From: Oscillospiraceae bacterium
GTDB lineage: Bacteria; Bacillota; Clostridia; Oscillospirales; Oscillospiraceae
Reading direction: 5' to 3'
Assembly (NCBI GenBank): GCA_045640125.1
Contig: JAZUEL010000040.1
Location: 4,305-68,304, forward strand
Length of the DNA stretch: 64,000 bases
This document shows positions 1,153-19,633 of the stretch, piece after piece. The notes beneath the pieces are model-generated. The model was not told the DNA's origin. It saw only the letters and a list, made by a program, of their open reading frames with translations, and ran no database searches. The position numbers and the translations under genes were made by a program. Within the stretch, counting starts at the first letter, position 1. Each line of letters begins with the position of its first letter.

Positions 1153-2265
1153 ATGAAAAAATTAATTCTGCTTATGGCAGCGGTACTCTGTCTGTCCCCG
1201 CTGACGGCGTATGCCGTGGAGGCGGAGCCGGAGGTTTCGGCGGCGGCGTATATTCTCTATGAGCCGGAGAGCGGAACGGTGCTGACGGAGCACAATGCAG
1301 ACGAGCAGCATCTCATCGCCAGCACGACCAAGATCATGACCGCGCTCGTGGTGCTGGAGCACTGCGAGCTGTATGAGCCGGTGGAAATCGCGCCGGAATG
1401 GGCGGCGATCGAGGGCTCGTCCATGTATCTGAAAGCGGGACAGCGCTATACGGTGGAGGAACTGCTCTACGGCATGATGCTTGTCTCCGGCAACGATGCC
1501 GCCACGGCGCTGGCGTGTCATGCGGCGGGCAGTGTGGAAGCCTTTGCCGCATGGATGAACGAGAAAGCGTCGGAGCTGGGCTGTGAGAACACTCACTTTG
1601 AAAACGCCTGTGGGCTTGACGGCGAGGCGCATTACTCCACTGCGCGTGACCTCGCGCGGATAGCGGCGGCGGCCATCCGGAACGAGGACTTTCGGCGCAT
1701 CGTCTCGACCAAATGCAAAACGATTCAGGGCGATACCTTTTATAACCACAATAAGCTGCTTGCCCGCTGCAAGGGTGTGTTCGGGGTTAAGACCGGCTAC
1801 ACCATGGCAGCCGGACGGACGCTTGTCTCCGCCTGCGAGCGCGACGGAATGACGCTGATCTGCGTCACGCTTGCCGACCGAAACGACTGGACAGACCATG
1901 CCTCGCTGTACGATTGGGCATACGGCGAGTGGCGCTCGGTCAATGCGGCGGATTACGCCCAAGACCTGTCCGTGTATGTGATCGGCGGGAAACAGGCGGA
2001 GCTGACGGCGGCGGGGGACTGCTGCGTGCTGCTGCGAAAGGATGCGGAGCTTTCGGTCGTGACCGAGCTTCCGCCTTTTGTCTTTGAGGGACTGGAACAG
2101 GGAACGGAGCTGGGACGGCTGTGCTTCCTGGCGGACGGGGAGCCTGTGGGCGAGTGTCCGTTGGTGCTCGGCTGCAGCCTGCCTGTGACCGATGAGCCGC
2201 TTTCAAGGGGCGAACGATTCGTCCGCCTCTGGAAATCGGCGGGAAGGAATATCTATTCATTTTGA
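1153..2265 (+). CDS. dacB: D-alanyl-D-alanine carboxypeptidase (peptidase S11, PBP5-type)
   Basis: Signal peptide MKKLILLMAAVLCLSPLTAYA. All three PBP motifs are present: SxxK (ASTTKIMT), SxN (SGND), KTG (VKTGYT). The symbol is assigned from synteny with ytfJ and rluB; the product call is more certain than the paralogue. Confidence 0.8.
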   Translation: MKKLILLMAAVLCLSPLTAYAVEAEPEVSAAAYILYEPESGTVLTEHNADEQHLIASTTKIMTALVVLEHCELYEPVEIAPEWAAIEGSSMYLKAGQRYTVEELLYGMMLVSGNDAATALACHAAGSVEAFAAWMNEKASELGCENTHFENACGLDGEAHYSTARDLARIAAAAIRNEDFRRIVSTKCKTIQGDTFYNHNKLLARCKGVFGVKTGYTMAAGRTLVSACERDGMTLICVTLADRNDWTDHASLYDWAYGEWRSVNAADYAQDLSVYVIGGKQAELTAAGDCCVLLRKDAELSVVTELPPFVFEGLEQGTELGRLCFLADGEPVGECPLVLGCSLPVTDEPLSRGERFVRLWKSAGRNIYSF

Positions 2266-2984
2266 CGGAACGACTGCAAAAACTTATTTCGGCGGCGGGC
2301 ATTGCATCCCGCCGTGCGGCGGAGAAGATGATCGCCGAGGGACGCGTGCAGGTCAACGGAAAGACCGCCGAGATCGGTATGTCCGCCGATCCGGACAAGG
2401 ATCTTGTCACGGTGGACGGCGAGCCGATCACGCTCGGCACACGCCGCCGCTACATAATGCTGAACAAGCCCCGCGGCTACGTCACGACCATGTCGGATGA
2501 GTTCGGTCGGCCCACGGTGGTGGAACTGACAAAGGATGCCGGCGGGCGGCTCTATCCCATCGGGCGGCTCGATATGGATTCCGAGGGACTGCTGCTTCTC
2601 ACGGACGACGGCGATTTTGCCAATCGGATGATGCATCCGGCGCGTGAGGTCAACAAGGTCTATCAGGTCTTTGTGCAGGGCAAAGATATCCACGCCGCTG
2701 TCCGGCAGCTTCAGGCCATGCGGGAGCTAGACGGCGAGCCGATCGCCGCGGCGCAGGCCTCGCTGATTGAGCGGCACGGTGACGGCGCGGAGCTGCAAAT
2801 CGTCATCCATGAGGGGAAAAACCGTCAGGTGCGCCGGATGTGCGCCGCCTGCGGGCTGCACGTTTCGCGGCTCGTTCGACTGGCGGAGGGCTCTCTCGTG
2901 CTGGGGGATCTGGCATCGGGCGCGTGGCGCTATCTGACAAAAGATGAAGTGAGAACTTGCATGAATGACATAAATATGTCATGA
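2262..2984 (+). CDS. rluB: 23S rRNA pseudouridine synthase, RsuA/RluB family
   Basis: N-terminal S4 domain (RLQKLISAAGIASRRAAEKMIAEGRVQVNGK) followed by the catalytic GRLDMDSEGLLLLTDDG motif. Start overlaps the dacB stop. Confidence 0.85.
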   Translation: MTERLQKLISAAGIASRRAAEKMIAEGRVQVNGKTAEIGMSADPDKDLVTVDGEPITLGTRRRYIMLNKPRGYVTTMSDEFGRPTVVELTKDAGGRLYPIGRLDMDSEGLLLLTDDGDFANRMMHPAREVNKVYQVFVQGKDIHAAVRQLQAMRELDGEPIAAAQASLIERHGDGAELQIVIHEGKNRQVRRMCAACGLHVSRLVRLAEGSLVLGDLASGAWRYLTKDEVRTCMNDINMS

Positions 2985-3055
2985 TTTTGCTCTTTTTATA
3001 AAAAATTTGAAAGAAATCATCATTTTGCTTGCATTTTCGGGATGGACTTATTAAG

Positions 3056-3946
3056 ATGAAGAAAAGCCAAAGCAAGCAGGTGAATGCCATGGAAAAAGAT
3101 ATACTTTCCCAGATTTCCGAAAAGAGCAGCCGCTTTTCCCGCGGACAGCGGAGCATTGCGCGGTATATTTCGGAAAACTACGATAAAGCCGCCTTTATGA
3201 CGGCAGGGAAGCTCGCCCTCACGGCGGGGGTCAGCGAATCGACCGTCGTCCGCTTTGCGACAGAGCTGGGCTATGAGGGCTACCCCGAAATGCGCAAAGC
3301 CCTGCAGGAACTTGTCCGCAACCGTCTGACGAGCGTGCAGCGCATTGCGGCCTCGCGGGAGATGCTGGACAGTCCCGCACTGCTCAAATCCGTTATGGGT
3401 GCGGATATGGACAAGCTCCGCGTGAGCTATGAGGCGCTGAGTCAGCAGAGCTTTGACGAAGCGGTGGACGCTATCACCGAGGCGAAAAATGTCTACATCC
3501 TCGGGATGCGATCCTCGGCGGCGCTCTCGTCGTTCATGGGCTTTTATCTCAATTACCTCATGGACAATGTCCGCGTTGTGAACGATACCAAGGGCAGCGA
3601 GGTCTACGAGCAGATGCTGCGCATCGGTCCCGGAGATGTTCTGTTCTGCATCAGCTTCCCGCGCTATACATCGAACTCCCTCAGCGCGGCGCGCTTCGCC
3701 AAGGAGCACGGTGCGCGGATCATTGCCCTGACCGATAACGATTCCTCGCCCTTTGCCTCCATCGCGGATACGGTGCTGTTTGCCAAGAGTGATATGGTCT
3801 CGTTTCTGGACTCGCTCGTGGCACCTATGAGCGTCATTAATGCCATCATCATCGCCATAGCTTCCCGCAGTCGGGAGACGCTGGACGACACATTTTCCAA
3901 GCTGGAGGCCCTTTGGGATGAATACGGAGTATTTGCGGAAAGCTGA
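3056..3946 (+). CDS. MurR/RpiR family transcriptional regulator (HTH + SIS domain)
   Basis: HTH_6-like N-terminus (RSIARYISENYDKAAFMTAGKLALTAGVSESTVVRFATELGYEGY) and a SIS domain (VYILGMRSSAALSSF...). Start is uncertain; ATGs at 3056 and 3089 are both possible. Confidence 0.8.
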   Translation: MKKSQSKQVNAMEKDILSQISEKSSRFSRGQRSIARYISENYDKAAFMTAGKLALTAGVSESTVVRFATELGYEGYPEMRKALQELVRNRLTSVQRIAASREMLDSPALLKSVMGADMDKLRVSYEALSQQSFDEAVDAITEAKNVYILGMRSSAALSSFMGFYLNYLMDNVRVVNDTKGSEVYEQMLRIGPGDVLFCISFPRYTSNSLSAARFAKEHGARIIALTDNDSSPFASIADTVLFAKSDMVSFLDSLVAPMSVINAIIIAIASRSRETLDDTFSKLEALWDEYGVFAES

Positions 3947-5174
3947 GGTCGTTGTCATCGGCGGCGGTGCCGCGGGTATGATGGCGGCGCTGACGGCAGC
4001 GGAGCAAGGCAAAAGCGTCATCCTGCTCGAGCCGAACGACAAGCTCGGACGCAAGCTGCGTATCACGGGCAAGGGACGCTGCAACTGCACCAACCACTGC
4101 TCCGTCAAGGAGTTTTTGGAAAACGTTCCGACGAATCCCAAATTTTTGATGAGTGCGCTTCATGCGTTTCCGCCGGAAAAAGTCATGGAATTTTTTGAGG
4201 GCATCGGTGTGCCGCTCAAGACCGAGCGCGGCAACCGCGTTTTTCCCGTTTCCGACAGCGCCAACGACCTGGCAGATCATTTGGCGGCGGCCATGCGCGC
4301 AGCCGGTGTCAGCGTGAAAAAGACGCGGGCGCGGGCCCTTTGCTTGCAGGACGGGCGGATCGTCGGTGTGAAAACGGCAGACGACGGGACGATAGAATGC
4401 GATGCCGTCGTCGTGGCGACGGGTGGCAAAAGCTATCCGCTCACCGGCTCGAGGGGAGATGGCTACACCCTGGCTCAAGCCTGCGGTCACAGTATCTCGG
4501 AGCCGAAAGCCTCGCTGGTGCCGCTGGAAAGTTCGGATGAATTTTGTTCGGAGCTTTCGGGCTTTGCCCCGCGGAATGTGACGCTGTCCGTCTATGAAAA
4601 CGGCAAGCTCATTTTCAAAGAGTTGGGCGAAATGCTGTTTGCGCATTTCGGTGTGACGGGGCCTTTGGTGCTGTCGGCGAGCTGCCATATGCACGATTTT
4701 GTCCATAAAAAATACGAGCTGTTCATCGACTTTAAGCCCGCATTGGACGAACAAAAGCTGGACGAGCGACTCCTGCGGGACTTTGCCCGCTTTGCTAACC
4801 GCGACTTCGGAAACGCGCTGGATGAGCTGGCGGCCAAGTCCTTTATCCCTGTGCTGGTGCGGATGTCCGACATTCCGGCGGATAAAAAAGTGCATTCCAT
4901 TACCAGACAGGAGCGGAAAAAACTTGTCTCGCTGCTGAAAGCCTTTCCCGTGCAGGTCACGGGGCCGAGACCGATCGACGAAGCGATCGTCACCTCCGGC
5001 GGCGTGGACGTGCGGGAGATCGACCCGCGCACGATGCAGTCGAAGCTGGTCGGCGGACTCTATTTTGCGGGCGAGGTTTTGGACGTGGATGCCTATACGG
5101 GCGGCTTTAATCTTCAGATCGCATGGTCTACCGGCCGCTGTGCCGGACTTCATGCGGGAAAGGATACAGAATGA
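3918..5174 (+). CDS. NAD(P)/FAD-dependent oxidoreductase, BaiN/HI0933 family
   Basis: N-terminal dinucleotide-binding motif VVVIGGGAAGMMAA and the family-typical C-terminus (GGVDVREIDPRTMQSKLVGGLYFAGEVLDVDAYTGGFNLQIAWSTG). Confidence 0.8.
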   Translation: MNTEYLRKAEVVVIGGGAAGMMAALTAAEQGKSVILLEPNDKLGRKLRITGKGRCNCTNHCSVKEFLENVPTNPKFLMSALHAFPPEKVMEFFEGIGVPLKTERGNRVFPVSDSANDLADHLAAAMRAAGVSVKKTRARALCLQDGRIVGVKTADDGTIECDAVVVATGGKSYPLTGSRGDGYTLAQACGHSISEPKASLVPLESSDEFCSELSGFAPRNVTLSVYENGKLIFKELGEMLFAHFGVTGPLVLSASCHMHDFVHKKYELFIDFKPALDEQKLDERLLRDFARFANRDFGNALDELAAKSFIPVLVRMSDIPADKKVHSITRQERKKLVSLLKAFPVQVTGPRPIDEAIVTSGGVDVREIDPRTMQSKLVGGLYFAGEVLDVDAYTGGFNLQIAWSTGRCAGLHAGKDTE

Positions 5175-5854
5175 ACGAAAAGATTTGCACGATCGCCATT
5201 GACGGTCCTTCGGGTGCCGGAAAGAGCACGATCGCCCGCGCGGCGGCGGAGCGCTTCGGCTTTATCTATGTCGACACCGGTGCCATTTACCGCACGGTCG
5301 GCCTGGCGGCGCGTCGGGCGGGGATCGACCCCAAAGACCCGGACACGGTGACCGCGCTGCTGCCCTCGCTGAAGATCGAGCTGCGCCACGGTGAGGACGG
5401 GATGCAGCGTATGTATCTGAACGGGGAGGATGTCTCGGGGCTTATTCGCACGCCGGAGATCAGTATGTATGCCTCGGCGGTTTCCGCGATCCCCGCTGTG
5501 CGCGCTTTTCTGATGGATATGCAGCGCGATATGGCGAAGACCATGAGCGTCATCATGGACGGACGCGACATCGGCACAGTTGTTCTGCCCGATGCGGGGC
5601 TGAAGATCTTCATGACGGCTTCCGCCGAAGCGCGTGCCCGCCGCCGTCTGCTGGAGCTGCAGCAGAAGGGGGAGACGGTAAGCTTTGACGAAGTGCTTCG
5701 GGATATGATCGAGCGCGACCGAAACGACTCCACCCGCGCGGCGGCACCGCTGAAGCAGGCGGAGGATGCCGTGCTGCTCGACACGACAGAGCTTGACCTT
5801 GCCGGCAGCATTGACGCTGTTTCCAATCTGATCCGCGAAAGGTTTTCTTTATGA
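5171..5854 (+). CDS. cmk: (d)CMP kinase
   Basis: IAIDGPSGAGKST P-loop, YVDTGAIYR, MDGRDIGTVVLPDA. The ATG at 5171 forms an ATGA overlap with the preceding stop, so the ORF-track start at 5123 was trimmed. Confidence 0.9.
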   Translation: MNEKICTIAIDGPSGAGKSTIARAAAERFGFIYVDTGAIYRTVGLAARRAGIDPKDPDTVTALLPSLKIELRHGEDGMQRMYLNGEDVSGLIRTPEISMYASAVSAIPAVRAFLMDMQRDMAKTMSVIMDGRDIGTVVLPDAGLKIFMTASAEARARRRLLELQQKGETVSFDEVLRDMIERDRNDSTRAAAPLKQAEDAVLLDTTELDLAGSIDAVSNLIRERFSL

Positions 5855-8566: not shown

Positions 8567-10624
8567 TTAATTGAAGTGATCGCCGTTGATGACAAAAAGC
8601 TGCTCGATACGCTGCTTCAGAGGCTGATTTTCTGATTTTTCCAAAGCCGGATCATCGGCAAGCAATGTATTCGCCTCGTTCTGGGCCTGCTTTAGTACGC
8701 GCATATCGCCGGACAGGTCGGCAACGTGCATCTCCGGCAGACCGTGCTGTCGGGCACCGAAGAAATCGCCCGGACCGCGAAGCCGCAGATCCTCCTCGGA
8801 AATCTTGAAGCCGTCGTTGGTTTTGCACAGAATGGAAAGCCGTGCTTTCGCCTCCTCGTTTTGCGCCTCCGAGAACAGAACGCAGTAGCTCTTGTGCTGT
8901 CCGCGCCCGACCCGTCCGCGAAGCTGGTGAAGCTGCGCCAGACCGAAACGCTCCGCGTTTTCGACGATCATCAGCGCGGCGTTCGGAATGTCTACGCCGA
9001 CCTCGATGACCGTGGTGGACACGAGTATATCGAACTGCCCCGCCGCGAAGTCCGCCATAATGGTGTCCTTTTCTTTGGCTTTCATCCTGCCGTGGATGCA
9101 GCGGACACGCAGCTCGGGGAATATTTTCGTTTGCAGCTCTTTTGCGTATTGCTCTGTGTTTTTGAGCGCCTCGCCCCATTCTTCATTTTCTTCGACCATG
9201 GGACAGACGATGAATACCTGCCGCCCCTCGCCGACGAGTTTTTGCACGAATTTCCAAATCCGCGGACGCATCGTTTCGTTCACGGCGAAGGTGTCCACCT
9301 TCTGCCGACCGGGAGGCAGCTCATCGAGGATCGAGATGTCGAGGTCGCCGTAGATGATGAGCGCCAGCGTGCGGGGGATGGGCGTGGCGGACATGACCAG
9401 AACGTGCGGGGTGATGCCCTTTTCCGTGAGCGCGCCGCGCTGATCGACACCGAAACGGTGCTGCTCGTCCGTGACGACAAAACCGAGCTTTGCAAAATGT
9501 ACGTCTTTGCCGATGAGTGCGTGCGTCCCGACGGCAAGATCACATTCACCGCTTGCCAGAAGCGCCATGCTCTCGCGCTTTTGTTTGGCGGTCATGGAGC
9601 CCGTGAGCTTGACCGTGCGTATGCCGAAGGGAGAGAGAAGCCGCCCCAGTGTTTCATAATGCTGATCGGCGAGGATCTCGGTCGGGGCCATGAAGGCTGC
9701 CTGATAGCCGCTTTTTACCGTCAGCCAGATGAGCGCCGCGGCTACCAGCGTCTTGCCGCTGCCTACATCGCCCTGCAGGAGACGATTCATGGGCGTGGCG
9801 GAAGCCATGTCGCCGGCGGCTTCGAGTATGGCTCGTTTTTGTGCGCCGGTGGGCGCGAAGGGGAGTGCAGCGAAAAACTCGGCAGGGTCGGTCATGGAAA
9901 AGCGCAGACCGTTTTGATTGTTGCGCCGTCCACGAAGAAGACCCAATGCGGCGGAGAGAACGAATAGTTCTTCAAAGACAAGCCTTGTACGGGCTAATTG
10001 CAGTGCGCCGTCATCCTGCGGGAAGTGGATGTTTTGATAGCAAAAGCGCGGCTGCGCCAGTTGATATTTGTCGCGTATCCGCTCCGGCAGGGCGTTGGGA
10101 AGCTCGTCCCCGCAGGCGGTCAGCGCGTTTTGCATCAGCGCGGTCATGGTCTTGCGGCCGATGCCGGTAGTGAGGCGGTAGACGGGAAGGATGCGTCCCG
10201 TGATTAGTCCCTGCTTATCCTCGGCTTCAAATTCGGGGTTGGCCATACAGCGCCGTCCGCGCTGAAGGGTAATCCTGCCGTAAAAAATATAGAAAAAGCC
10301 GGGCTTTAAAGCGCTTTTGAGGTAGCTTTGATTGAAGTAGGTAATATCGAGGCAATCCTGTTCATCCACGGCGCGGAGCTTCAGAATCTCCATGCCGCCG
10401 CGCACGCGGGTCGAGGTCGGCGTTGCGGCGACCATAGCACGGACGCAGACGGGCATATCCGTCGGCGCGCCGCCGATGGAGTAGATCTGTCGCCTGTCCT
10501 CATAGGCACGCGGAAAGTAACATACAAGATCCCGCAGGGTATGTATGCCGAGCTTTTCGAGCGTTTTGGCTTTCTTTTCGCCCACGCCTTTCAGATATTG
10601 AATATTGTCATTCAGTCCGCTCAT
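8567..10624 (-). CDS. recG: ATP-dependent DNA helicase RecG
   Basis: 685 aa. Wedge-domain N-terminus, helicase motif I (GDVGSGKT), DEQHRFG (motif II), SATPIPRT, QLHQLRGRVGRG. Confidence 0.9.
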   Translation of the reverse strand: MSGLNDNIQYLKGVGEKKAKTLEKLGIHTLRDLVCYFPRAYEDRRQIYSIGGAPTDMPVCVRAMVAATPTSTRVRGGMEILKLRAVDEQDCLDITYFNQSYLKSALKPGFFYIFYGRITLQRGRRCMANPEFEAEDKQGLITGRILPVYRLTTGIGRKTMTALMQNALTACGDELPNALPERIRDKYQLAQPRFCYQNIHFPQDDGALQLARTRLVFEELFVLSAALGLLRGRRNNQNGLRFSMTDPAEFFAALPFAPTGAQKRAILEAAGDMASATPMNRLLQGDVGSGKTLVAAALIWLTVKSGYQAAFMAPTEILADQHYETLGRLLSPFGIRTVKLTGSMTAKQKRESMALLASGECDLAVGTHALIGKDVHFAKLGFVVTDEQHRFGVDQRGALTEKGITPHVLVMSATPIPRTLALIIYGDLDISILDELPPGRQKVDTFAVNETMRPRIWKFVQKLVGEGRQVFIVCPMVEENEEWGEALKNTEQYAKELQTKIFPELRVRCIHGRMKAKEKDTIMADFAAGQFDILVSTTVIEVGVDIPNAALMIVENAERFGLAQLHQLRGRVGRGQHKSYCVLFSEAQNEEAKARLSILCKTNDGFKISEEDLRLRGPGDFFGARQHGLPEMHVADLSGDMRVLKQAQNEANTLLADDPALEKSENQPLKQRIEQLFVINGDHFN

Positions 10625-11204: not shown

Positions 11205-11219
11205 AACCGTCCTTCTTTT
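11187..11219. terminator. Bidirectional hairpin between mobA and the 3' deacetylase fragment
   Basis: 14-bp stem AAAAGAAGGACGGT / ACCGTCCTTCTTTT with loop TTGAA. It overlaps both stop codons. Confidence 0.65.
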
Positions 11220-11460
11220 ATGCGGCGTTGTTGGGACACATCATGCCGGTGTTGTCGATGGTATAGGAGCCTTTGAGCAGAAGCTCCGAGACGGGAATGA
11301 TGGTGTAGCCCTCGGAGAGCAGGTATTCGATGATGCGGGGGAGAGCCTCGGGTGTGTGCAGCGCGGCGTTGTGGAACAGAACGATCGATCCGGGCACGAC
11401 CTTTTCCGTGACGCGCTGATAGATCTCGTCCGCCGAAAGCTCCTTCCAGTCAAGACTGTC
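11218..11460 (-). pseudogene. 3' (C-terminal) half of a split PdaB-like CE4 polysaccharide deacetylase gene
   Basis: The minus-strand frame reads DSLDWKELSADEIYQRVTEKVVPGSIVLFHNAALHTPEALPRIIEYLLSEGYTIIPVSELLLKGSYTIDNTGMMCPNNAA*. It contains NodB motifs 4 (DxxDW) and 5 (LFHN). It has no start codon or RBS of its own. The frame stays open upstream into non-homologous sequence up to a stop near 11541. It is absent from the ORF track because it lacks an initiator. Confidence 0.8.
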
Positions 11461-11625
11461 CCTAAATGCAACAGATTCAAGCCCTGTGATACCAATGCTT
11501 TGCGGATTTTTCTGTGCCTTTACAAAGCTTGCAGATTTGACCGATCAAAGAGGAATAACCCATAGCCTTGGAGTAATTCTGAATACGCTCCTTATTGCTC
11601 TTTCAGGCTGAGTTATATCTCTACG

Positions 11626-12195
11626 TTAAAAGTTGAATTTCACTCTCATCGGTTTTGCATCGGGAGAATCTTTGAGAAAATCCATCAACAATATTTTCAA
11701 GTCATCGGTGTGATCTTCGGAAAGATCTTCGTAGTCGAGTTCCTTCATTCTGCGAACAAATAGCAAACCTTCTTCTCCTACTTCGCCCGTTGGTGCAAAT
11801 CCTGTTTTTTCAAGAACTCTCCGGGAAGCAGTATTAGACTCTTCAACTTCCGCCTTAATACATACTACATTGGGCTGCCTTAGAGCCCAATCTACAACTG
11901 TATTAACTGCCTCTGTTGCATAACCGAAGCCCTGATAATCATCGGCAATACCGTATCCAATTTCTGAGATTCCTTCTTCGGAAATTCCTTTGAAGCAAAG
12001 CTCTCCGATATGCGTGCCATCTTTTAATTCTATCATCCAGATGGCATACCACTCCCACTGATTCGGATGTGACAGGCAACCATCCAGCATTTCCGTGTAA
12101 GCGGCTTTCAGAACATCCACCGACTGCGCCGCAATGAATGCCTCCATCTGTTCTTTGGACGCTGCATAAATTTTCAAACGCTTTGTTTCTATCAT
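11626..12195 (-). CDS. GNAT family N-acetyltransferase (RimJ/RimL-like)
   Basis: 189 aa. Starts with the typical ETKRLKIY... and has an acetyl-CoA binding Q/RxxGxG/A-type motif (YQGFGYATEA). Low-G+C cargo of the element. Confidence 0.75.
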   Translation of the reverse strand: MIETKRLKIYAASKEQMEAFIAAQSVDVLKAAYTEMLDGCLSHPNQWEWYAIWMIELKDGTHIGELCFKGISEEGISEIGYGIADDYQGFGYATEAVNTVVDWALRQPNVVCIKAEVEESNTASRRVLEKTGFAPTGEVGEEGLLFVRRMKELDYEDLSEDHTDDLKILLMDFLKDSPDAKPMRVKFNF

Positions 12196-12241
12196 GTTTT
12201 CCTCACTCCATTATGATTTAACCGGCTCTGCAAATATCCCC

Positions 12242-12559
12242 TTATCCGTGATAATCACCGGTGGCAGAATCTACTGTGACATAAGGTACGGACTTTCCAT
12301 CGATAATCACATAGACCTGAAAAATGCCATCGCCCAGATCTTCGTACCGGTCGGGTGTAACCCCGTATTGCGCCAAAAGCGATGCCTCAAAATCGGTTTT
12401 CCAGTCTTCTTCCGTACCGGAATCAATCGGTGTCTCCGGTTCTTCTGTCGGAGAGGGTAAATCATTCGCTGAGTCCTGCTGTGCTGCGGAAAGGCTGCTG
12501 CAGGCGCATAGGGAAGCCATTATCAGTAAAGCGATTATACAAGCTATTATTTTTTTCAT
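12242..12559 (-). CDS. Small lipoprotein of unknown function
   Basis: MKKIIACIIALLIMASLCACSS gives a signal peptide plus lipobox (LCAC). GGGAG RBS 7 nt upstream of the ATG at 12559. The ORF-track start at 12589 is less likely. Confidence 0.6.
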   Translation of the reverse strand: MKKIIACIIALLIMASLCACSSLSAAQQDSANDLPSPTEEPETPIDSGTEEDWKTDFEASLLAQYGVTPDRYEDLGDGIFQVYVIIDGKSVPYVTVDSATGDYHG

Positions 12560-12668
12560 TTTTGATCTCCCATCATCTGATTTGTTCATTTTGCATCTAA
12601 CTTTCCGAAAAACAAATACATTCCGAGTACTGCTTGAGCTTCTTTCTGATATATAAGAGATATGGCAT

Positions 12669-13421
12669 TTATCGTTTCCACCGTTTCAGCGTCGGGAACA
12701 ATTTTACGCAATACGCTTTCATTTCTTCGTTGGTCATGCCCGCCTGTGCGCCGAACTGACTGCACATTTCGATATATTCCTCCATCGAAACCTTGTCAGT
12801 AAATTCGCCGTTCACATAGCAGTATTTGCAATAGTCTTCGTTGATGCTGCCGTCGGCGTTGGTGCCGAAAACCTCTTCGGATTCCATCGGCATTCCACAG
12901 CTCTGACAGATCTTCAGATCCGCCTTTTTCTTTATCGGCACCCATATACCGCACTCATAATCCGGAGACTGCGGATTCCCGGCAGAATAGATTTCAAGGG
13001 AGGACGAGCCGATTTCATACATCGTTTTTATGTTCGGCGCCCATTCTTGCCACACCTGTGTGTTGAGCGTCTGCAAAGACTGCGGGATCGCACCCTTTGC
13101 CGAGAAGATTGCCCAGTCGCCTTCCGGGAAGGTGAAAAGCTCCAGTCCCTCCGGCACATTGCCGCCCTTGTAAAGTCCGGCGATCCAATAGGCAAAGCCG
13201 TTATCTCCGTCGGCGCAGATGGCGTACATACCAATGCCGTTTTCAAGGAACGCCGCTTCAACGGGTGTTTCGGGCTTCATCGTCTGCCAAAGACGGGCAT
13301 GCTTCTCGTTGTATTCTTTGTCCCAAAACTCAGGGCATTTCCGATAGCCCTCATTCGGTGCAATCTCGGTATGAAAACCGATAAAAGTCAGTTCGTTTTT
13401 GTGTTCGTAGCTTATGTTCAT
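12669..13421 (-). CDS. GyrI-like (AraC effector-binding type) domain protein fused to a C-terminal putative zinc-ribbon domain
   Basis: The [20 protein letters not shown]... effector-binding fold pattern is followed by [36 protein letters not shown]...FPTLKRWK (Zn_ribbon_2-type signature). The ATG at 13421 forms an ATGA overlap with the upstream GNAT stop, so the ORF-track start at 13661 was trimmed. Confidence 0.7.
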
Positions 13422-13960
13422 TGATTTTTCCTCCATTCTTCTTTCGTTAGTCGGGTAATATGCTCGGTGCGGATATCGTCCATCAGTTTCCAATGAATGT
13501 CCTTGTTTGTGTGGTGATATGTAAATCCACACTTTTCCTGACAGCGTTTTGATTTTTCGTTGCCGTCGAAATAGCCGCACCAAAGGGTATCTAGATGTAA
13601 ATCGGCAAAAGTGTGACGGATAAGTTCTCTTGTTGCTTCGGGAATCAGTCCATGCCCCCAAAAGGGAACGCCGATCCAGTAGCCGATCTCTCCCTCGTTT
13701 TCAGACAAATCAAGATTGCTCTGTTTGCCGATCATCAGTCCGATACTGCCGATGGCTCTGTTATCTTCTTTTAAGCAGACGGCGTAAGTCTCGGGCTCCG
13801 ACAGTACTGTACGGATAATCTCACGGCTGTTTTCAACGCTTGTGTGCGGCGGCCATCCGGCAATAGGACCTATACGGTCATCCTTTGCATATTCGTATAA
13901 ACTCTCCGCATCCGCTTCATCCCACGGACGGAGGATCAGTCTTTCTGTATGTAAATTCAT
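13418..13960 (-). CDS. GNAT family N-acetyltransferase (RimJ/RimL-like), second copy
   Basis: [27 protein letters not shown]... is the canonical N-terminus of this subfamily, followed by an [18 protein letters not shown] core. Confidence 0.8.
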
Positions 13961-14017
13961 TTTCTTGCCTCTTTTATGCTTTTCATGTTTTTTGTGTTTG
14001 CAAATCCCGGTTTATCC

Positions 14018-14254
14018 TTAATTCGCTCGTATGGTCGTATATTTCTTTTTGATTGGATGTCGGATGACCGTTTTCCATTTCTCCGGCGCGACCTTTCTCG
14101 CGTCAGAAAGGTAGATTTCGTGATGAATGCGCGTGTCGGAAAAATCGTTTTCATATCCGTTTTCGGCAAGGTATTGAGTCATCAACTCGATAGTTTCCGG
14201 CTCATTATCAAAAGGACCTATGTGCATGATTTGCACGCAAAGGCCCTTTTTCAT
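14018..14254 (-). CDS. GyrI-like domain protein, C-terminal part only (probably an N-terminally truncated remnant)
   Basis: 78 aa: QIMHIGPFDNEPETIELMTQYLAENGYE...RIHHEIYLSDARKVAPEKWKTVIRHPI matches only the C-terminal half of ~200-aa GyrI-like proteins. It sits directly after the TetR gene. Confidence 0.5.
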   Translation of the reverse strand: MKKGLCVQIMHIGPFDNEPETIELMTQYLAENGYENDFSDTRIHHEIYLSDARKVAPEKWKTVIRHPIKKKYTTIRAN

Positions 14255-14270
14255 CTCTTTTCCTGATTTT

Positions 14271-14864
14271 TCACGCTTTCTTGTAGATATTGATAAAATG
14301 CCTTACGAATGCCTCGATCTTCTCGATAATTTCCGCTTCCTTATCGGGCTCGCGGTCACAGAAATGGATCAGCGCCGTGATCGGAGCGGTATAGGCAAAG
14401 GCCAGCATCTCCGGGTCATCTTTTTTCAGAATACCGTTATCCATCATTTCCGCAAACATTTTCGTATAGATGTCCTTTGTTCCGGTCAAAAAGTGCAGAG
14501 TAGCAAACCGGCGCGCTCTTTCATCACGGAACTGTTCCGTTAGAAGGAGTTGTCTTGTAAGGATCACCCTTTTATCGTGCATGGTAAAGTCCAGCATCTG
14601 CATCGTCATCGTAAAAAGTTCATCACAGGAATTCGGCACAGGCGGCATCTTCTCCGGCGAGCCGAAGCGGGCGCTATAATAGGCTTCCATTTGGTCGAGG
14701 ACGGCATTCCAGATATCCTCTTTGCATTCATAGTGCTTATAAAGGGCAGACTTGCTGAGTCCCATTCCTGCGGCGAGATCACGCAGATTGGTTCCCTTAT
14801 ATCCGTTTTCGGCGAAGCTTACGAGCGCCGCATCAAGAATCTTTCCCTTCGTTGTGTTTTCCAT
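14271..14864 (-). CDS. TetR/AcrR family transcriptional regulator
   Basis: N-terminal HTH: GKILDAALVSFAENGYKGTNLRDLAAGMGLSKSALYKHYECKEDIW. The ATG at 14864 was chosen (MENTTKGK...). The ORF-track start at 14903 would overlap the operator repeats. Confidence 0.85.
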   Translation of the reverse strand: MENTTKGKILDAALVSFAENGYKGTNLRDLAAGMGLSKSALYKHYECKEDIWNAVLDQMEAYYSARFGSPEKMPPVPNSCDELFTMTMQMLDFTMHDKRVILTRQLLLTEQFRDERARRFATLHFLTGTKDIYTKMFAEMMDNGILKKDDPEMLAFAYTAPITALIHFCDREPDKEAEIIEKIEAFVRHFINIYKKA

Positions 14865-14885
14865 TACATCCTCCGTATAAATATG

Positions 14886-14928
14886 GTGACCGCTTGGACA
14901 CATATTATTATAGTGACCGCTTGGTCAC
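14886..14928. promoter_or_regulatory. Two tandem copies of a 16-bp palindromic operator (GTGACC-N4-GGWCAC), probable TetR binding sites
   Basis: GTGACCGCTTGGACAC at 14886-14901 and GTGACCGCTTGGTCAC at 14913-14928. They lie 22-64 nt upstream of the TetR start. The arms GTGACC/GGTCAC are perfectly palindromic in copy 2. Confidence 0.6.
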
Positions 14929-15141
14929 TTGTCAATGAATTTCACGAAAGTGTTCCCATTAAAAAGGCGACAGGGATTCTCCCTGCCGCCGTGCCTCCGT
15001 TATGCGTAGATTCAATCACAATTGACGATTTCCGTTGATATAATTACCCCCCCCATACAAGGCTTGGTTTCAGTATAGACCATTCGTTTCCCCGCATATA
15101 CCGCCGGAGGCGGACATAGCTTGAACCGAGGAGGCTCGGCT

Positions 15142-15285
15142 ATGGAAGTAAAGCACACCCACCCGAAGTACGAGACGGAAAGTCAGCGCCTGGACAAGCT
15201 GAAGGAGACCCGTACGGTATGTCTCTCGGTGGTTGCGCGTCTTCGCGGAAAGAGCGATAAGCACACGCTGAGAAAGAGTGCGTGA
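15142..15285 (+). CDS. 47-aa basic small ORF, translationally coupled to the serine recombinase
   Basis: ATG at 15142 is preceded by GAGGAGG 4-5 nt upstream. Product is MEVKHTHPKYETESQRLDKLKETRTVCLSVVARLRGKSDKHTLRKSA*. Its TGA (15283-15285) lies 1 nt before the recombinase ATG (15287). Too short for the ORF track; no family recognised. Confidence 0.4.
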   Translation: MEVKHTHPKYETESQRLDKLKETRTVCLSVVARLRGKSDKHTLRKSA

Positions 15286-15286
15286 C

Positions 15287-16744
15287 ATGAGAGAGAATGC
15301 TGTATATGCCCGTCAGTCCGTGGAAAAACGGGACAGCCTTTCGATCTCCGGGCAGATCGACCTCTGCTGCCGCAGCGCAGGGGTCGATCACCTGCGGGAG
15401 TATAAGGACAGCGGCTACTCGGGCAAAAATACCGAGCGCCCGGGTTTTCAGCGTCTGATGAAGGATATCAAGGCAGATCGGATCGGCACCCTGTACGTCT
15501 ATCGTCTTGACCGCTTCTCCCGCAGCGTGGCGGATTTCGGCCAGCTCTGGGAGGTCTTACAGGCGCACAAGGTCGAGTTTGTATCCGTCAGCGAGAACTT
15601 CGATACCAAGACCCCCATGGGCCGCGCTATGCTCCATATCATCATGGTCTTTGCCCAGCTGGAGCGCGAAACGATCGCCGAGCGTGTCCGCGACAACTAC
15701 TACCGCCGCCACGCGCTGGGACGCTGGCCCGGCGGCCCCGCCCCCTATGGCTACGACAACGGGCGCGTTGCCGACGACAGCGGACGCATCGTCCCCGCCA
15801 TCATCCCCAATGCCGATGCCACCATGGTGCAGACGATATTCAACTCCTATGCTGAGGAGGGAATGTCCCTCGGTATTCTGGCAAAGAGCCTCAATGACGG
15901 CACAAATACCGCCATTCAGCGCGGTACCTGGGACAATGTGGCGCTCTCCCGCATCCTGCACAATCCAACCTATGCCATGGCGGACGCGCAGGTGCGGCTG
16001 TATCTGTTGGCGCAGGGCATCAATGTCACGTCGCCGGAGGAGGATTTTGACGGCATCCACGGTGTCATGCTGGTGGGCAAGCACACCGGCAGCGAGCGAA
16101 AGTACACCGATATGCGCGACCATACCGCTGCCGTCCTCAATAGTGTCGGCCTCGTGTCCTCGGAGCTGTGGCTTCGGTGTCAGGACAAGCTCTCGCATAA
16201 CCGCCAGATCGGCAACGCCGGTAAGGGGAAGCACACATGGCTGTCGGGGCTTTTGAAATGTGCCAAATGCGGCTACAGCATCAAGATCGCCTCTGAGAAG
16301 GCGCACCGCTGGATGCTGTGCAGCGGGCGGTACAATCTGGCGCACTGCGATGCTTCCATCCATGTCGATCTTTCCGAGTTGGAGGCTGTCGCTCAGCAGG
16401 AAATCGAAAAGCTTTTGGCGGAGTGCCCCGAGGAAGCCGCAGAGCCGGAGCAAGATGATTATGCGGCGCATCTGGCTGAGATCGACCGACGGGCGGATCG
16501 TCTGCTGGATGCTTTCGCGGAGAGCGATATGTCCGATACATACCTCAGGCGTGCATTGGGACGTTTGGAAAAGGAACGGCAGGTGCTTCTGGAAAGCCGC
16601 AAACGCATGGAGAGCCGTCCGACCTTGCCGGACAAGCTGGTCTTTTCCGAACTGAGCTTTGAGGAAAAGAAAGCCGTCGCTGCACAGTTCATCGAGCGTA
16701 TTGAGGTGGGGGAGCAGTCGGTGGAAATCAAGTGGAAGATCTAA
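15287..16744 (+). CDS. Large serine recombinase (SpoIVCA/phage-integrase type)
   Basis: Resolvase catalytic domain (AVYARQSVEKRDSLSISGQ with the nucleophile Ser context; YVYRLDRFSRS), recombinase domain, and a zinc-ribbon (CAKCGYSIK...CSGRYNLAHC) followed by a coiled-coil tail. 485 aa from the ATG at 15287. Confidence 0.9.
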   Translation: MRENAVYARQSVEKRDSLSISGQIDLCCRSAGVDHLREYKDSGYSGKNTERPGFQRLMKDIKADRIGTLYVYRLDRFSRSVADFGQLWEVLQAHKVEFVSVSENFDTKTPMGRAMLHIIMVFAQLERETIAERVRDNYYRRHALGRWPGGPAPYGYDNGRVADDSGRIVPAIIPNADATMVQTIFNSYAEEGMSLGILAKSLNDGTNTAIQRGTWDNVALSRILHNPTYAMADAQVRLYLLAQGINVTSPEEDFDGIHGVMLVGKHTGSERKYTDMRDHTAAVLNSVGLVSSELWLRCQDKLSHNRQIGNAGKGKHTWLSGLLKCAKCGYSIKIASEKAHRWMLCSGRYNLAHCDASIHVDLSELEAVAQQEIEKLLAECPEEAAEPEQDDYAAHLAEIDRRADRLLDAFAESDMSDTYLRRALGRLEKERQVLLESRKRMESRPTLPDKLVFSELSFEEKKAVAAQFIERIEVGEQSVEIKWKI

Positions 16745-16796
16745 ATGAAAGAAAAGGAGACATATTCTATCCGGAATTCATCCGATAGTAGATTAA

Positions 16797-16835
16797 CGCG
16801 CACCGCATTCATACGAATACGGTGCGCGTGATTTT
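16797..16835 (+). terminator. Intrinsic terminator after the recombinase gene
   Basis: 9-bp stem CGCGCACCG / CGGTGCGCG, 14-nt loop, followed by TGATTTT. Confidence 0.6.
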
Positions 16836-17118
16836 GTCATCAACTTGCTTGGAATTTTTACTTGAATGAGGAATAAGATGCCTTTACAATGAAATAACAG
16901 TATAACAAGGTTATGCCGTCTGTTTTCGGGCGGCGTGTTCGAGTAGGGCAGATTGCTTTCCAGCTGGTTGATGTTCGCCGTCAGCACCGCGCCCAGAAAA
17001 TACAGCGAGAGGACGAGAAGCTGAAAGGTCGTTTTTTTATAATTTAATCATATCATCTTAGGGGTCAACGGAAAACGCCTCTCCGGCGACGAGCCGCTAT
17101 GAGGGCAGCGGTGTCATG

Positions 17119-18729
17119 TCAATCTTCAACGGGGGCGCGGAGTTTATCCATGTCGATCTGATTGAGCTTCACTGCCACGCGCAGCAGTTCAAGCTGCAGA
17201 AGGAAGCCGTTGAGCGCCGGAAGCAGGTAGCCGAGGATCGTGCCGAGCAGAATGGCGAGCGGGTAAACGCTCTCCGGCACGCCGCAGGCGGTGAACATGA
17301 TCGGCATGACCGCGAACACGGAGCCCGGGATGGGCGGCGCGGCAATGGCGAGGATGACCGATACGATCACGACACGCGCGAAAACCGAGCCCGTGAGCAC
17401 CGTACCGGTGACGGAGGCGAGCGAAAGCACCGTGAGTCCGAGGAAGACCGCCCCGCAGGGCATATATACCACAACGCCGAGCGGCAGCGCAAAGTCCGTG
17501 AGCTTTTCGTCGATGCCGAACTTGTCCTTGCAGCAGTGCATATTCTCCGGCAGCGCCGCGACCTGCGAGCTCGTGGTGAGGTTGATCATCAGCGTGGGCA
17601 GGGTCTTGCGGAAGATGAGGCCAAAGGGGACACCTGTGAGGATGCGGGTGCGGAGGATAGAAATAACAATCAGCACCGCACAGCAGACCGCAAAGAGGAT
17701 AAACACCCGCCCGACCGAGATAAACTCGCGCGGATCGCTGCTGTACATCAGATTGAAAATGCCAAAGAACACCACGAGCGGCAGCAGCTTGCAAACAACC
17801 GCCATCATACGGTTGATCAGGGTCGAGGCCTCGCGGATGATCGCGTTGAGTCCGCGAAGCTGATTGCCGAGGATCAGCATGACCACGCCCATGAAGATGG
17901 CGAGCGCAATGACCTGCAGATCGTTGTCGATGGTGAAGGGGTACAGGAGATTGTCCGGAACGATGTCCAGCACAAGCTGCACCGTCTGCGCCAGAACGCC
18001 GCCGGAGCTGTCTGTGCCGCCGCCGATGGGGTAGGAGAGCAGAGCTGCAAGAGCGATGGCTACCGCCGCGAGCAGATAGGCTATGCCCATCGCGCCGCAG
18101 ACCCGTTTGCCGATGCGCCCGAAAGAGGCTGCGTCATCCAGTCCCGTGATGCCTGTGATGACCGCGAGGAAGACGAGCGGTGTTGCCAACGCGGCGATCA
18201 CTGCGGTGAGCTTGTTGAAAACAGGCAGTGTGATGCCGGTATAGATGATCTCTGCCGCGTTGGGAGCAACAGAAGAAAGCAGGAGACAGGACACTACGGC
18301 CAGCACCAGCGCGCTCAGCATCAAAAAGAGCATCCGGTTTTTGACCGGACCGAGCTCCGCCGGAAGTGTGACGCAGTTCATATGCCGCCGTGCTATGTAG
18401 GAATAGCGCGGACGCACATCCAGTCGGCTCAGAATATCGTAGGCGAATTGCAGTTCGTCCTCCGGCTGCGCCACGGGGTCGATCTGCGGACCGTCCTGAC
18501 GCAGCTCGAATGTAAGCTGACCGAAGCGTTTACGCCCGACGATGCGGCAGGGCGTCTCCGTGCCGTAAAAGCGGCGGAATTTGATGAGCAGCTCCTCCAC
18601 GGCGAGGCGCATTTTCGTCTCGACGATGGCGCGTTTGCCCGCCTGCTTCAGATATTCCTGCGCGACCTCCTGCGACCATTCGGCAATGACCTCGTTGGTC
18701 AGGATGGCTTCGCGTTTGTAAAAGATCAT
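17119..18729 (-). CDS. Dicarboxylate/amino acid:cation symporter (DAACS/SDF family) with an extra ~125-aa N-terminal soluble domain
   Basis: Polytopic membrane core with family signatures (NLTTSSQVAALP, MPCGAVF, IAAPPIPGS). The ATG at 18729 (MIFYKREA...) has a GAGGTG RBS. The ORF-track start at 18807 remains possible. Confidence 0.75.
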   Translation of the reverse strand: MIFYKREAILTNEVIAEWSQEVAQEYLKQAGKRAIVETKMRLAVEELLIKFRRFYGTETPCRIVGRKRFGQLTFELRQDGPQIDPVAQPEDELQFAYDILSRLDVRPRYSYIARRHMNCVTLPAELGPVKNRMLFLMLSALVLAVVSCLLLSSVAPNAAEIIYTGITLPVFNKLTAVIAALATPLVFLAVITGITGLDDAASFGRIGKRVCGAMGIAYLLAAVAIALAALLSYPIGGGTDSSGGVLAQTVQLVLDIVPDNLLYPFTIDNDLQVIALAIFMGVVMLILGNQLRGLNAIIREASTLINRMMAVVCKLLPLVVFFGIFNLMYSSDPREFISVGRVFILFAVCCAVLIVISILRTRILTGVPFGLIFRKTLPTLMINLTTSSQVAALPENMHCCKDKFGIDEKLTDFALPLGVVVYMPCGAVFLGLTVLSLASVTGTVLTGSVFARVVIVSVILAIAAPPIPGSVFAVMPIMFTACGVPESVYPLAILLGTILGYLLPALNGFLLQLELLRVAVKLNQIDMDKLRAPVED

Positions 18730-18880
18730 CACAGTCACCTCGATCTGTGGATATATCAGCTTCATAGAAGATATACCTATTATAGGCGTTCCCGCTTTCT
18801 TTTGCAAGAAGCGCCCATGATCATCCTATCGTTCCGGCTTCACGGGTTTTTGGTATGCTCCTGTGTTTCTACAAACTTAC

Positions 18881-18947
18881 AAAAAATTGACCTTTCATCT
18901 TTGAAACGACAGAATGGTGTCGGCAGATGAAAGGTCAGTTCTTTTTT
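18881..18947. terminator. Bidirectional terminator-like hairpin just inside the right end of the element
   Basis: 12-bp perfect stem TGACCTTTCATC / GATGAAAGGTCA with a 26-nt loop, flanked by an A6 run on one side and a T-rich run on the other. Confidence 0.5.
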
Positions 18948-18999
18948 GTATGTAGGTTACTGTGAAGAAACCGCAAACCATTGGCACACAAGGACTTTC

Positions 19000-19551
19000 C
19001 TATGTTGCACTCAGCTCGCAGTTCCATTGGATTGCGCTCATGCCGAGAGAGTTTACGGTGGAAATGACATCGTCATCATACTCGCCGTAGGGGCAGCGGA
19101 ACAGGGTGGGAGCTTCGCCGGTGATGGCTTCGATTTTCTGGTTGCAGGCTGTGACCTGCTGTATGATCTCGCTTTCCGAAAGCTTCGCCATGTGGGGATG
19201 GTCGTCGGAATGGTTGCCCAACTCCATGCCTGCGTCGTAGAGCTGCTGCACGCTTTCGGGGTACTTATCCGCCCACATACCGACCAGAAAGAAGGTGGCC
19301 TTAACGCCGTATCGGTTGAGAATGTTGATCAGCTCCTCGGTGTCTTCGTTGCCCCATGCTGCGTCGAAGCTCAGTGCGACGGTTTTGTTGTCCCGCTGTA
19401 CGCAGTAGATGGGGAGCTCTCGTGTCGCCGCCGCGGCACCGACGATTGCCGGACTTGTCACTGCCCACAGGATCGCCGCTGCCGCGAACACAAAAGCGAC
19501 CGCGCCGATGAGCTTTCGGTATCTCCTCAGTATGTACCGTGTCTTTTCCAA
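19000..19551 (-). pseudogene. 5' (N-terminal) half of the split PdaB-like CE4 polysaccharide deacetylase gene
   Basis: TTG start at 19551 with a GGAGGT RBS 8 nt upstream. N-terminal TM helix. NodB motif 1 variant (ALSFDAAWGNED), motif 2 (NHSDDHPH) and motif 3 (FRCPYG) are present. Homology ends at ...LGMSAIQWNC, then the element-derived residues ELSAT* follow. Motifs 4-5 are missing here and are found at 11218-11460. Confidence 0.85.
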
Positions 19552-19633
19552 ACTGTATTACCTCCGTTTCGGTTTTGGTACATCCTATGACACGACCCCG
19601 CCGTATATTTGTCCTTTTTGTTGGGCGTTGTCA

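Follow-up and report, generated by a model that had tools for sequence, protein, structure and literature searches.

We analyzed a 64,000-nt stretch of DNA from an Oscillospiraceae bacterium (the window; contig JAZUEL010000040.1), in which a PdaB-like polysaccharide deacetylase gene was interrupted by a 7.6-kb cassette carrying a large serine recombinase gene. The deacetylase gene was of the CE4/NodB type and was present as two minus-strand pieces, 19551-19016 and 11460-11218. The 5' piece (19016 to 19551) contained codons 1 to 178 and the GA of codon 179. It started at a TTG codon at 19551, with a GGAGG sequence 8 nt upstream, and it encoded an N-terminal hydrophobic anchor followed by NodB motifs 1 to 3 (SFDAAWG, HSDDH, and RCPYG). 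The C-terminal part read ...LGMSAIQWNC and then ELSAT, and the unjoined open reading frame (ORF) ended at a stop codon at 19002-19000. The 3' piece (11218 to 11460) contained the GA, codons 179 to 258, and the stop codon, and a hairpin terminator was located at about 11217-11186. This piece lacked an initiator codon and encoded DSLDWKELSADEIY...IVLFHN... up to the stop, which included the remaining motifs, DSLDW and IVLFHN.

The dinucleotide GA was present at both break points (19017-19016 and 11460-11459), and an in-frame join there created a 777-nt ORF for a 258-amino-acid (258-aa) protein. All five CE4 motifs (FDAAWG, HSDDH, RCPYG, DSLDW, and LFHN) were complete only after the join. When the joined protein was aligned with ten intact orthologues, there were no gaps at the junction, residues D179, S180, L181, D182, W183, and K184 were invariant, and the junction rebuilt an invariant IQW-x-x-DSLDWK block. 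The CE4 structure 6hm9 aligned with residues 46 to 239 of the joined protein, across the junction and without a gap. A protein search with the joined sequence returned thousands of relatives, and the closest were mostly exactly 258 aa in length. One intact orthologue (P0001) was 98% identical to the joined protein over 100% of its length with no insertion or deletion at the junction, and another (P0095), which was 68% identical, carries the JGI name PdaB. Among GTDB species representatives, each of the 80 best loci was uninterrupted; these were mostly metagenome-assembled genomes of Oscillospiraceae, and Sporobacter termitidis was among them. As judged from these alignments, the two fragments belong to one gene that was precisely interrupted.

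The joined protein filled the TIGR02764 (PdaB) profile (positions 2 to 191 of 191), and PdaB was its best family (210.2 bits, compared to 167.6 for YlxY and 120.2 for PdaA). Because the score was under the equivalog cut-off, PdaB-like is the right wording. An earlier note on this DNA, which was made without database searches, had described a single deacetylase in two same-strand pieces, with motifs 1 to 3 in one and motifs 4 and 5, without an initiator, in the other. Both descriptions held up, as did the in-frame join at the common dinucleotide and the canonical motif spacing that it restores. The comparison with uninterrupted orthologues, which had been proposed beforehand as a check, gave the 98% identical, gap-free match described above. 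The note's resemblance to PdaB stood as far as the best family and the full profile were concerned, but not as far as the equivalog score was concerned, and the stop that it placed 6 codons past the junction is in fact 5 codons plus the stop.

A separate observation concerned NodB motif 1, which was FDAAWG in the ten aligned members of the orthologue group, with F62, D63, A64, and A65 invariant. In this motif (joined residues 62 to 67, window positions of about 19368-19351), Ala replaced the second Asp, a metal ligand, of the canonical TFDD, which raised the question of how, or whether, these deacetylases bind metal.

The empty form of the site was found on L081, the contig that encodes P0001. 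This contig was 88 to 91% identical to the window at the nucleotide level and contained the same locus with the gene uninterrupted. L081 positions 1147-1747 corresponded to window positions 19618-19016, and L081 positions 1746-4638 corresponded to window positions 11460-8567. The two flank matches overlapped by 2 bp (GA); therefore, the inserted DNA was 11461-19015 (7,555 bp, flanked by the repeated GA) plus one duplicated crossover dinucleotide. Such a duplication is the mark of a serine integrase. The GC content of the insert was 51.6%, compared to 55.9% for the window.

The empty-site comparison also placed the attachment sites, both of which were read on the minus strand. attL (18977 to 19057) contained a gene-side arm, the GA crossover at 19017-19016, and an element-side P' arm, and attR (11420 to 11500) contained an element-side P arm, the GA crossover at 11460-11459, and a gene-side arm. 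The P' arm of attL, GCTGAGTGCAACATAGGAAAGTCCTTG, was similar to the arms of the elements in three related loci (L084, L153, and L163), and the P arm of attR was collinear with that of a fourth (L195). The GA dinucleotide was common to attL, attR, and attB. In the attP rebuilt from the element ends, there was an imperfect dyad, AAGCATTGG...TGTTGCA // TGCAACA...CCAATGGTT, with 17 of 25 inner positions matching. The attB site was also a dyad, TCCA(A/G)T-N8-GA-N8-ACTGGA, whose symmetry comes from the Trp codon in IQW and the one in LDW. The expected attB junction was CAATGGAACTGC-GA-CAGTCTTGACTGG (as a k-mer, CAATGGAACTGCGACAGTCTTGACTGG), and the expected junction of the attP circle was TTGCATTTAGG-GA-GCTGAGTGCAAC (as a k-mer, TTGCATTTAGGGAGCTGAGTGCAAC).

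The recombinase gene (15287 to 16744, plus strand) encoded the 485-aa protein that the earlier note had recognized as a large serine recombinase lying among unrelated cargo. Pfam bore out this assignment (Resolvase, PF00239; Recombinase, PF07508; and Zn_ribbon_recom, PF13408), and the imperfect dyad of the deduced attP agreed with it. The protein matched the PHROG 95 integrase family (9.5e-92) and, when 13 family members were aligned, had all of the invariant residues, among them the catalytic serine motif YARQS. Of the curated NCBIfam families, XisF scored best, at 128 bits against a cut-off of 375. The recombinase family was abundant in the gut, and a search at an E value of ≤1e-20 recovered more than 3,600 relatives; the best 120 were about 485 aa long and 62 to 82% identical, and some clusters at 90% identity contained thousands of sequences. 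The nearest element relative was L195, whose recombinase was 82% identical.

The neighborhoods of three recombinase relatives were inspected, and in two of the three a truncated Polysacc_deac_1 product of 183 to 186 aa was located next to or near the recombinase. Family alignment then yielded 80 metagenome and 29 IMG/VR loci. A tblastn search with the joined protein located a PdaB-like fragment that ended or started at residues 177 to 180 in 47 of 84 nonviral loci and in three viral contigs, and every resolvable junction was at the same GA. The same junction was present on dozens of independent metagenome contigs. The element-side arms were kept within recombinase sublineages, and the mirror symmetry extended for about 37 bp in elements of the L083 type. 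The three IMG/VR contigs that used the same deacetylase site carried phage-type genes and recombinases that were 38 to 45% identical. In two of them (L166 and L177), which had an endolysin-like domain, a CI-type regulator, NrdD/G, and dUTPase, the recombinase directly adjoined the 3' fragment at the same GA. Since prophage-like and cassette relatives both used this GA, the site is a hot spot for the whole clade.

Some related loci were no longer intact at the 3' side. In L097, L105 (about 5461-5690), and L122 (about 3-110), the 3' remnant began at residue 184 to 188 and had neither a GA junction nor an element arm, which means that attR was deleted and the gene was permanently broken. In L118 (18053-18237), L120 (18227-18450), and L149 (16131-16316), the 3' piece was frameshifted and attR was degenerate, with one base missing at the GA. 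This decayed 3' piece was located 0.6 to 0.9 kb upstream of a 5' piece split by an L083-type element, an arrangement suggestive of a tandem pair of deacetylase genes in which the upstream member has been decaying since an earlier insertion.

Directly upstream of the recombinase gene was a 47-aa ORF, MEVKHTHPKYE... (MEVKHTHPKYETES...; 15142 to 15285, plus strand), which had a GGAGG ribosome-binding site and a stop codon 1 nt before the recombinase ATG. The source annotation lists this ORF as a gene (P0276), and an equivalent ORF of 43 to 50 aa abutted the recombinase start in every close family member that was examined. The M-x-[VI]-K-H-T-H-P-x-Y start of the small ORF was kept through synonymous third-position changes, and because its changes are of this kind, the ORF is protein coding. 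A related ORF beginning M-x-[VI]-K-N-I-Y-P preceded recombinases that were 37 to 38% identical on IMG/VR contigs. When 5.8 billion proteins were searched by a word-based method, which is too insensitive for such a short peptide, only the 47-aa protein itself and one 81% identical protein were recovered. By analogy with known excision systems, we propose the 47-aa protein as a candidate recombination directionality factor.

A σE-type promoter motif, GCATATA-N14-CATAGCTT (15095 to 15123, plus strand), was located about 20 nt upstream of the 47-aa ORF. The stricter family form, CATW-N16-CATAGNNTG, had this motif as its sole match in the window, with 0.02 matches expected. When ten recombinase lineages were aligned without gaps, invariance was limited to the ATG, the ribosome-binding site, and two blocks, CAT.T and CATA...T, whose spacing was fixed; the sequence of the 14-nt spacer varied, as did everything upstream. 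In the L083 cluster, CATGTT and TCATAGGCTG were constant and the surrounding bases changed freely. Some of these changes were nonsynonymous in a fortuitous upstream frame, which is closed by a stop in the window. This pattern points to a regulatory rather than a coding constraint. Relatives on IMG/VR contigs that have the small ORF carried ATA-N16/17-CATAnnnT in the same place. The σE consensus has ATA at -35 and a CATA-type -10 element, the latter in common with σK, and the σK -35 element has AC (PMC3789822). The operon motif fits this mother cell σE consensus, and we infer that it is a working promoter. Homology between the elements of L195 and the window was confined to an att arm and a block from exactly 15093 through the recombinase; thus, the heritable core of the family consists of the att sites, promoter, small ORF, and recombinase.

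Other transcription signals were also located around this operon. A σ70-like promoter with an extended -10 element (TG), ATCACA-18-TATAAT (15015 to 15044, plus strand; 10 of 12 matches), lay farther upstream, and it was not kept in the other lineages that were inspected. Downstream of the recombinase gene, a hairpin followed by a T-run, CGCGCACCG-N14-CGGTGCGCG-tgattttgt (16797 to 16837, plus strand), was read from the sequence as the probable terminator of the operon; the terminator scan had passed over it because its loop is longer than 8 nt. In three related elements, L083 (about 9740-9785), L153 (about 5125-5165), and L163 (same relative position), a strong hairpin and T-run (ACACCGTGTAG...CTGCACGGTGTTTTCTTTT) was present immediately upstream of the σE-type motif. 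From its position, this hairpin would insulate the small ORF and recombinase operon from cargo read-through.

The deacetylase gene had a σE-type motif of its own, ATA-N16-CATAGGAT (19582 to 19608, minus strand), which ended 31 nt upstream of the start codon. In most of the 80 genomes, the pattern CATAwn-N14-CATAGGATGTACC, or CATA(A/T)n-N14-(T)CATAGGATGTACCAAAA, lay upstream of the orthologue, and its distance from the start was constant. About 57 of the 80 genomes had a loose match before the deacetylase orthologue with the start in the proper place, and all 26 matches to the strict pattern in 2.5 Mb preceded a deacetylase orthologue. In the 64-kb window, ATA-N16-CATANNNT had three matches, with 0.5 expected: one at the recombinase operon, one at the deacetylase gene, and one before an unrelated ORF. 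This third match (54674-54700, plus strand) was 140 nt before an ORF (54840-55817) for a 325-aa secreted or membrane-anchored protein with no family match, and it could mark another sporulation gene or be due to chance.

In B. subtilis, pdaB (spoVIE) is a member of the σE regulon, and the sporulation efficiency of a pdaB mutant is 5% (PMC4703394). Polysaccharide deacetylases of C. difficile are also under σE control. The window itself encoded a GerW/YtfJ-family sporulation protein (725-1111, plus strand; 108.5 bits, cut-off 116.3) beside a DacA/DacB-type D-Ala-D-Ala carboxypeptidase (1153-2265, plus strand), and the presence of these GerW/YtfJ and DacB-like genes makes the host a probable spore former, on circumstantial grounds. 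From its promoter motif and family, the target gene looks like a mother cell gene.

The rates of synonymous and nonsynonymous change (dS and dN) were compared between the window, in which the gene is split, and L081, in which it is intact. With a dS of about 0.5, dN/dS was 0.016 (5' piece) and 0.025 (3' piece). The values for two neighbors, recG (0.063) and the adjoining gene (0.177), were both above those of the deacetylase pieces. Between the window and L195, in both of which the gene is split, dN/dS for the promoterless 3' piece was 0.11, and 6 of the 20 changes were nonsynonymous (p=1.6e-5 against neutrality). Furthermore, the last 118 codons ahead of the junction were free of stops in all of 37 5' pieces. 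By these measures, both pieces remain under strong purifying selection. For the recombinase, dN/dS against L195 was 0.18. Its dS was 0.585, which was inside the host-flank range of 0.30 to 0.74; this value is compatible with long co-residence, and repeated invasion is also possible.

The rest of the cassette consisted of cargo genes on the minus strand. Between the recombinase gene and attL was a 562-aa ORF for an SDF-family sodium:dicarboxylate symporter (17119 to 18807; Pfam SDF, 6e-46). On the other side of the operon was a gene for a TetR-family regulator (14271 to 14935; Pfam TetR_N), which had a perfect σ70 promoter at 14935-14907 (TTGACA-17-TATAAT, scored 12/12) and palindromic operators. 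One palindrome, GTGACC-GCTT-GGTCAC, was located between the promoter hexamers, and a second, imperfect copy was just downstream (within 14887-14940). This operator layout reads as textbook autoregulation and would control the GNAT/GyrI cargo operon. The cargo block between the TetR gene and attR (11626 to 14254) contained a 78-aa GyrI-like fragment (14018-14254), a GNAT (13418-13960), a GyrI/Cass2 and Zn-ribbon protein (12669 to about 13424), and a second GNAT (11626-12195), as well as a small lipoprotein-like ORF (12242-12589).

None of the nine element proteins was a phage structural, lysis, packaging, or replication protein (PHROG matches were limited to integrase, acetyltransferase, and unknown-function families), and none belonged to a relaxase or Mob family in Pfam, NCBIfam, or PHROGs; oriT was not searched. 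Close relatives of the recombinase were absent from cultured phages (≤37% identity) and PLSDB plasmids (≤39%). Two candidate origins were rejected on these grounds: a prophage, since phage genes were lacking and the recombinase relatives in IMG/VR and in cultured phages were at most 45% and 37% identical, respectively, and a plasmid, since the best PLSDB match was at most 39% identical.

Cargo was wholly different between loci; for example, L084 carried metabolic and transport genes, and L195 carried LytR_cpsA_psr. The cargo of L083-type elements differed despite recombinases that were about 97% identical. In L083 (193-9104), it encoded 874-aa and 339-aa proteins, a 1,753-aa DEAD/YjiV_N/MZB helicase, and Fic, and in L134 (1335-2954), it encoded an AAA_15/AAA_21 ATPase, tyrosine-integrase-like fragments, DUF6557, and Fic. 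From these domains, L083-type cargo looks like anti-phage defense. Outside the element, the window contained a single uninterrupted 7,988-aa ORF (24 kb; 21870-45836, plus strand). When three 1,200-aa samples of this ORF were searched with Pfam, matches were limited to one InlB B-repeat (Flg_new_2) around residue 900 and to TPR repeats at the very C terminus, and the rest was without a recognized domain.

We consider it probable that, in the mother cell, the recombinase cuts out the cassette and thereby rebuilds a σE-expressed cortex deacetylase gene. In the proposed sequence of events, the cassette (11461-19015), with its nonphage cargo, would have been integrated by the large serine recombinase at the GA in the Asp codon of NodB motif 4 (DSLDW). 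In vegetative cells and in the forespore, the deacetylase gene would be split and silent. In the mother cell, σE RNA polymerase would transcribe the two-gene operon for the proposed directionality factor and the recombinase. The recombinase would then join attL with attR, which would release a circle of about 7.56 kb and restore the 258-aa frame. The rebuilt gene would be expressed from its own σE-type promoter, and the germ line (the forespore chromosome) would keep the cassette. The earlier note had suggested a developmentally excised element, and this part of it is now supported by the σE-type motifs before the operon and the deacetylase gene, as well as by the purifying selection on both pieces.

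Several observations weigh against mother cell excision, and some of them are what would be expected of a plain site-specific mobile cassette, the main rival, which we consider rather unlikely. Such a cassette would use the conserved, partly palindromic deacetylase stretch as its attB and knock the gene out on insertion. Its recombinase would serve for integration and for occasional excision during transfer, and loss of the deacetylase would be tolerated because of a paralogue or a dispensable function. The natural dyad in attB (TCCAGT-N8-GA-N8-ACTGGA) would attract a serine integrase whatever the role of the gene. The elements are clearly mobile, since recombinases that were 96 to 99% identical occurred in hosts whose deacetylase 5' pieces were only about 74% identical; therefore, at least the L083-type elements have spread horizontally and recently. 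Because of this spread, the signal of purifying selection could predate recent insertions. The cargo was variable and accessory (defense-like ATPases and helicases, Fic, transporters, and GNATs), and the σ70-like promoter upstream of the operon means that its expression may not be sporulation specific. The attR site or the 3' piece was deleted or frameshifted in L097, L105, L122, L118, L120, and L149, so the deacetylase gene can be lost for good. The window contained no second deacetylase copy, and an intact paralogue elsewhere in the genome is possible. Several further points bear on the identity of the parts. The joined protein, at 210.2 bits, did not reach the PdaB equivalog cut-off (NCBIfam TIGR02764, 237.4 bits), and the 47-aa ORF had no Pfam or PHROG family match. 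Moreover, if the recombinase shared its transcript with a directionality factor, a separate explanation would be needed for how the cassette integrates in a new host. The σE consensus that we used was that of Bacillus and C. difficile, and σE genes of the host lineage gave no calibration. Of 59 properly placed matches in about 1.25 Mb of sequence flanking the orthologues, 57 belonged to the deacetylase gene and 2 preceded other genes, a count that gave no independent positive control. Finally, neither IMG/VR nor the 194 fetched loci contained the circular attP form of the window-type or L083-type junctions, a null result that is uninformative because excised circles would rarely get assembled. 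A plain cassette, however, leaves unexplained the invariance of the σE-type motif in lineages with up to 38% protein divergence and in phage-borne relatives that have the small ORF. It also leaves unexplained the purifying selection on a promoterless 3' piece in two split lineages and the frequent inactivation of the gene with the lowest dN/dS in its neighborhood.

A stranded fossil, in which the recombinase or its sites are dead, the deacetylase gene of this genome has recently become a pseudogene, and active relatives are the source of the conserved features, strikes us as improbable. The partly decayed cargo (the 78-aa GyrI-like fragment at 14018-14254), the degenerate attR of related loci, and the lack of transfer genes in the Pfam and PHROG scans would suit a fossil. 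In contrast, the recombinase ORF was full length with all of the family-invariant residues and a dN/dS of 0.18 against L195, and the small ORF, both promoter motifs, the att arms, and the gene pieces were all intact. An assembly or binning artifact that joined unrelated contigs was considered because the source, a 69,683-bp contig, is probably from a draft assembly; nothing in its favor was found. The same GA junction with related att arms was present on dozens of independent assemblies and L081 was collinear with both flanks, which makes an artifact exceedingly improbable. Mother cell excision of the cassette remains the reading that we prefer, and the known systems discussed below provide its model.

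The closest parallel is skin, the element in sigK of B. subtilis, in which skr encodes a 64-aa directionality factor, overlaps the start of spoIVCA, and is controlled by σE (PMC6957869). Like skin, the cassette is an element with a large serine recombinase inside a sporulation gene, for which mother cell expression is predicted here. In both cases, a small ORF is located directly upstream of the recombinase; skr overlaps the recombinase start, whereas the stop of the 47-aa ORF is 1 nt before it. The excision functions of skin are σE dependent (PMC6957869), as is proposed for those of the cassette. Across species, skin elements have only the recombinase in common, and their cargo and size (2.6 to 48 kb) vary (bioRxiv 10.1101/2022.02.25.481979). 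Unlike skin, the cassette lacked phage-derived genes, its recombinase family was distinct, and its excision is proposed rather than known. Its target also encodes a cortex deacetylase instead of a sigma factor, and no regulatory cascade would therefore be gated by excision.

A second parallel is gin, a nonphage element in gerE of B. cereus ATCC 10987 that is excised by a serine recombinase and a small factor (GirC and GirX), both of which are sporulation specific (PMC5595907). The cassette resembles gin in being a nonphage intervening element in a sporulation-type gene with a serine recombinase and a small accessory ORF, whose role here is proposed. However, gin is 28.6 kb and has three recombinase genes and a 9-bp core, in contrast to the 7.6 kb, one recombinase, and 2-bp core of the cassette, and the family described here is far more widespread, in gut Oscillospiraceae. 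By analogy, the skin/gin paradigm would be the simplest reading that covers all of the observations.

SPβ in spsM (SprA/SprB), skinCd (CD1231/CD1234), and yin in yabG of C. botulinum are similar in that a serine integrase uses a symmetric, gene-internal site. In these three systems, the interrupted gene is a mother cell gene and a small directionality factor is under a σE or σK promoter, and phage-borne relatives of the recombinase described here use the same deacetylase site as the cassette. Their integrase is expressed constitutively and sporulation specificity is confined to the directionality factor, whereas both genes of the cassette are apparently in one operon behind the σE-type motif. 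The fdxN element of Anabaena heterocysts is also a serine recombinase element within a gene, and XisF excises it in a terminally differentiated cell. The recombinase score, however, was far under the XisF cut-off (128 versus 375 bits), and the organism, target, and developmental program differ. Elements such as Tn4451 and Tn5397 (TnpX/TndX) are 6 to 20 kb, nonphage, and have accessory cargo, excised circles, and a GA crossover. They also have mobilization or conjugation functions, several related insertion sites, and no directionality factor. Unlike these elements, the cassette had no Mob-type gene that could be detected in the family scans, and it used a single gene-internal site.

The sporulation genes known to be intervened are sigK, spsM, spoVFB, spoVR, gerE, and yabG, and almost all of these examples are from Bacillus and pathogenic clostridia. 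We found no report of a split pdaB or polysaccharide deacetylase gene in the searchable literature (subscription-only papers, such as Abe et al. 2013 Mol Microbiol, were outside its scope). This finding agreed with the view in the earlier note that the gene is not among the well-characterized cases. The proposed mechanism is thus a known one, and the new components are the target gene, the recombinase and small-ORF lineage, the nonphage cassette form, and the prevalence in gut Oscillospiraceae.

A broader proposal, which we put forward tentatively as a real possibility, is that horizontally mobile cassettes and related prophages form an undescribed, gut-wide Oscillospiraceae family that is specialized on one codon of one mother cell cortex deacetylase. 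Members of this family would have a module composed of a σE promoter, a new small-protein directionality factor (KHTHPxY), and a serine recombinase, and they would excise only in the mother cell. If this is true, an essential sporulation gene would serve as a parking place for accessory and defense genes, and the host would bear no cost.

The split gene is probably not a pseudogene, which is relevant to genome annotation. The cassette adds a new target, the gene for a cortex-modifying enzyme, to the intervened sporulation genes, and it brings in a new lineage of recombinases together with a small protein that is a candidate for a new directionality factor. The compact module of promoter, small ORF, recombinase, and att sites could possibly be used as a sporulation-triggered switch or as a genome-engineering integrase with defined attB and attP. 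Moreover, the thousands of recombinase sequences, some of which are in elements with defense-like cargo, provide evidence that the phenomenon is common in uncultured Oscillospiraceae of the gut.

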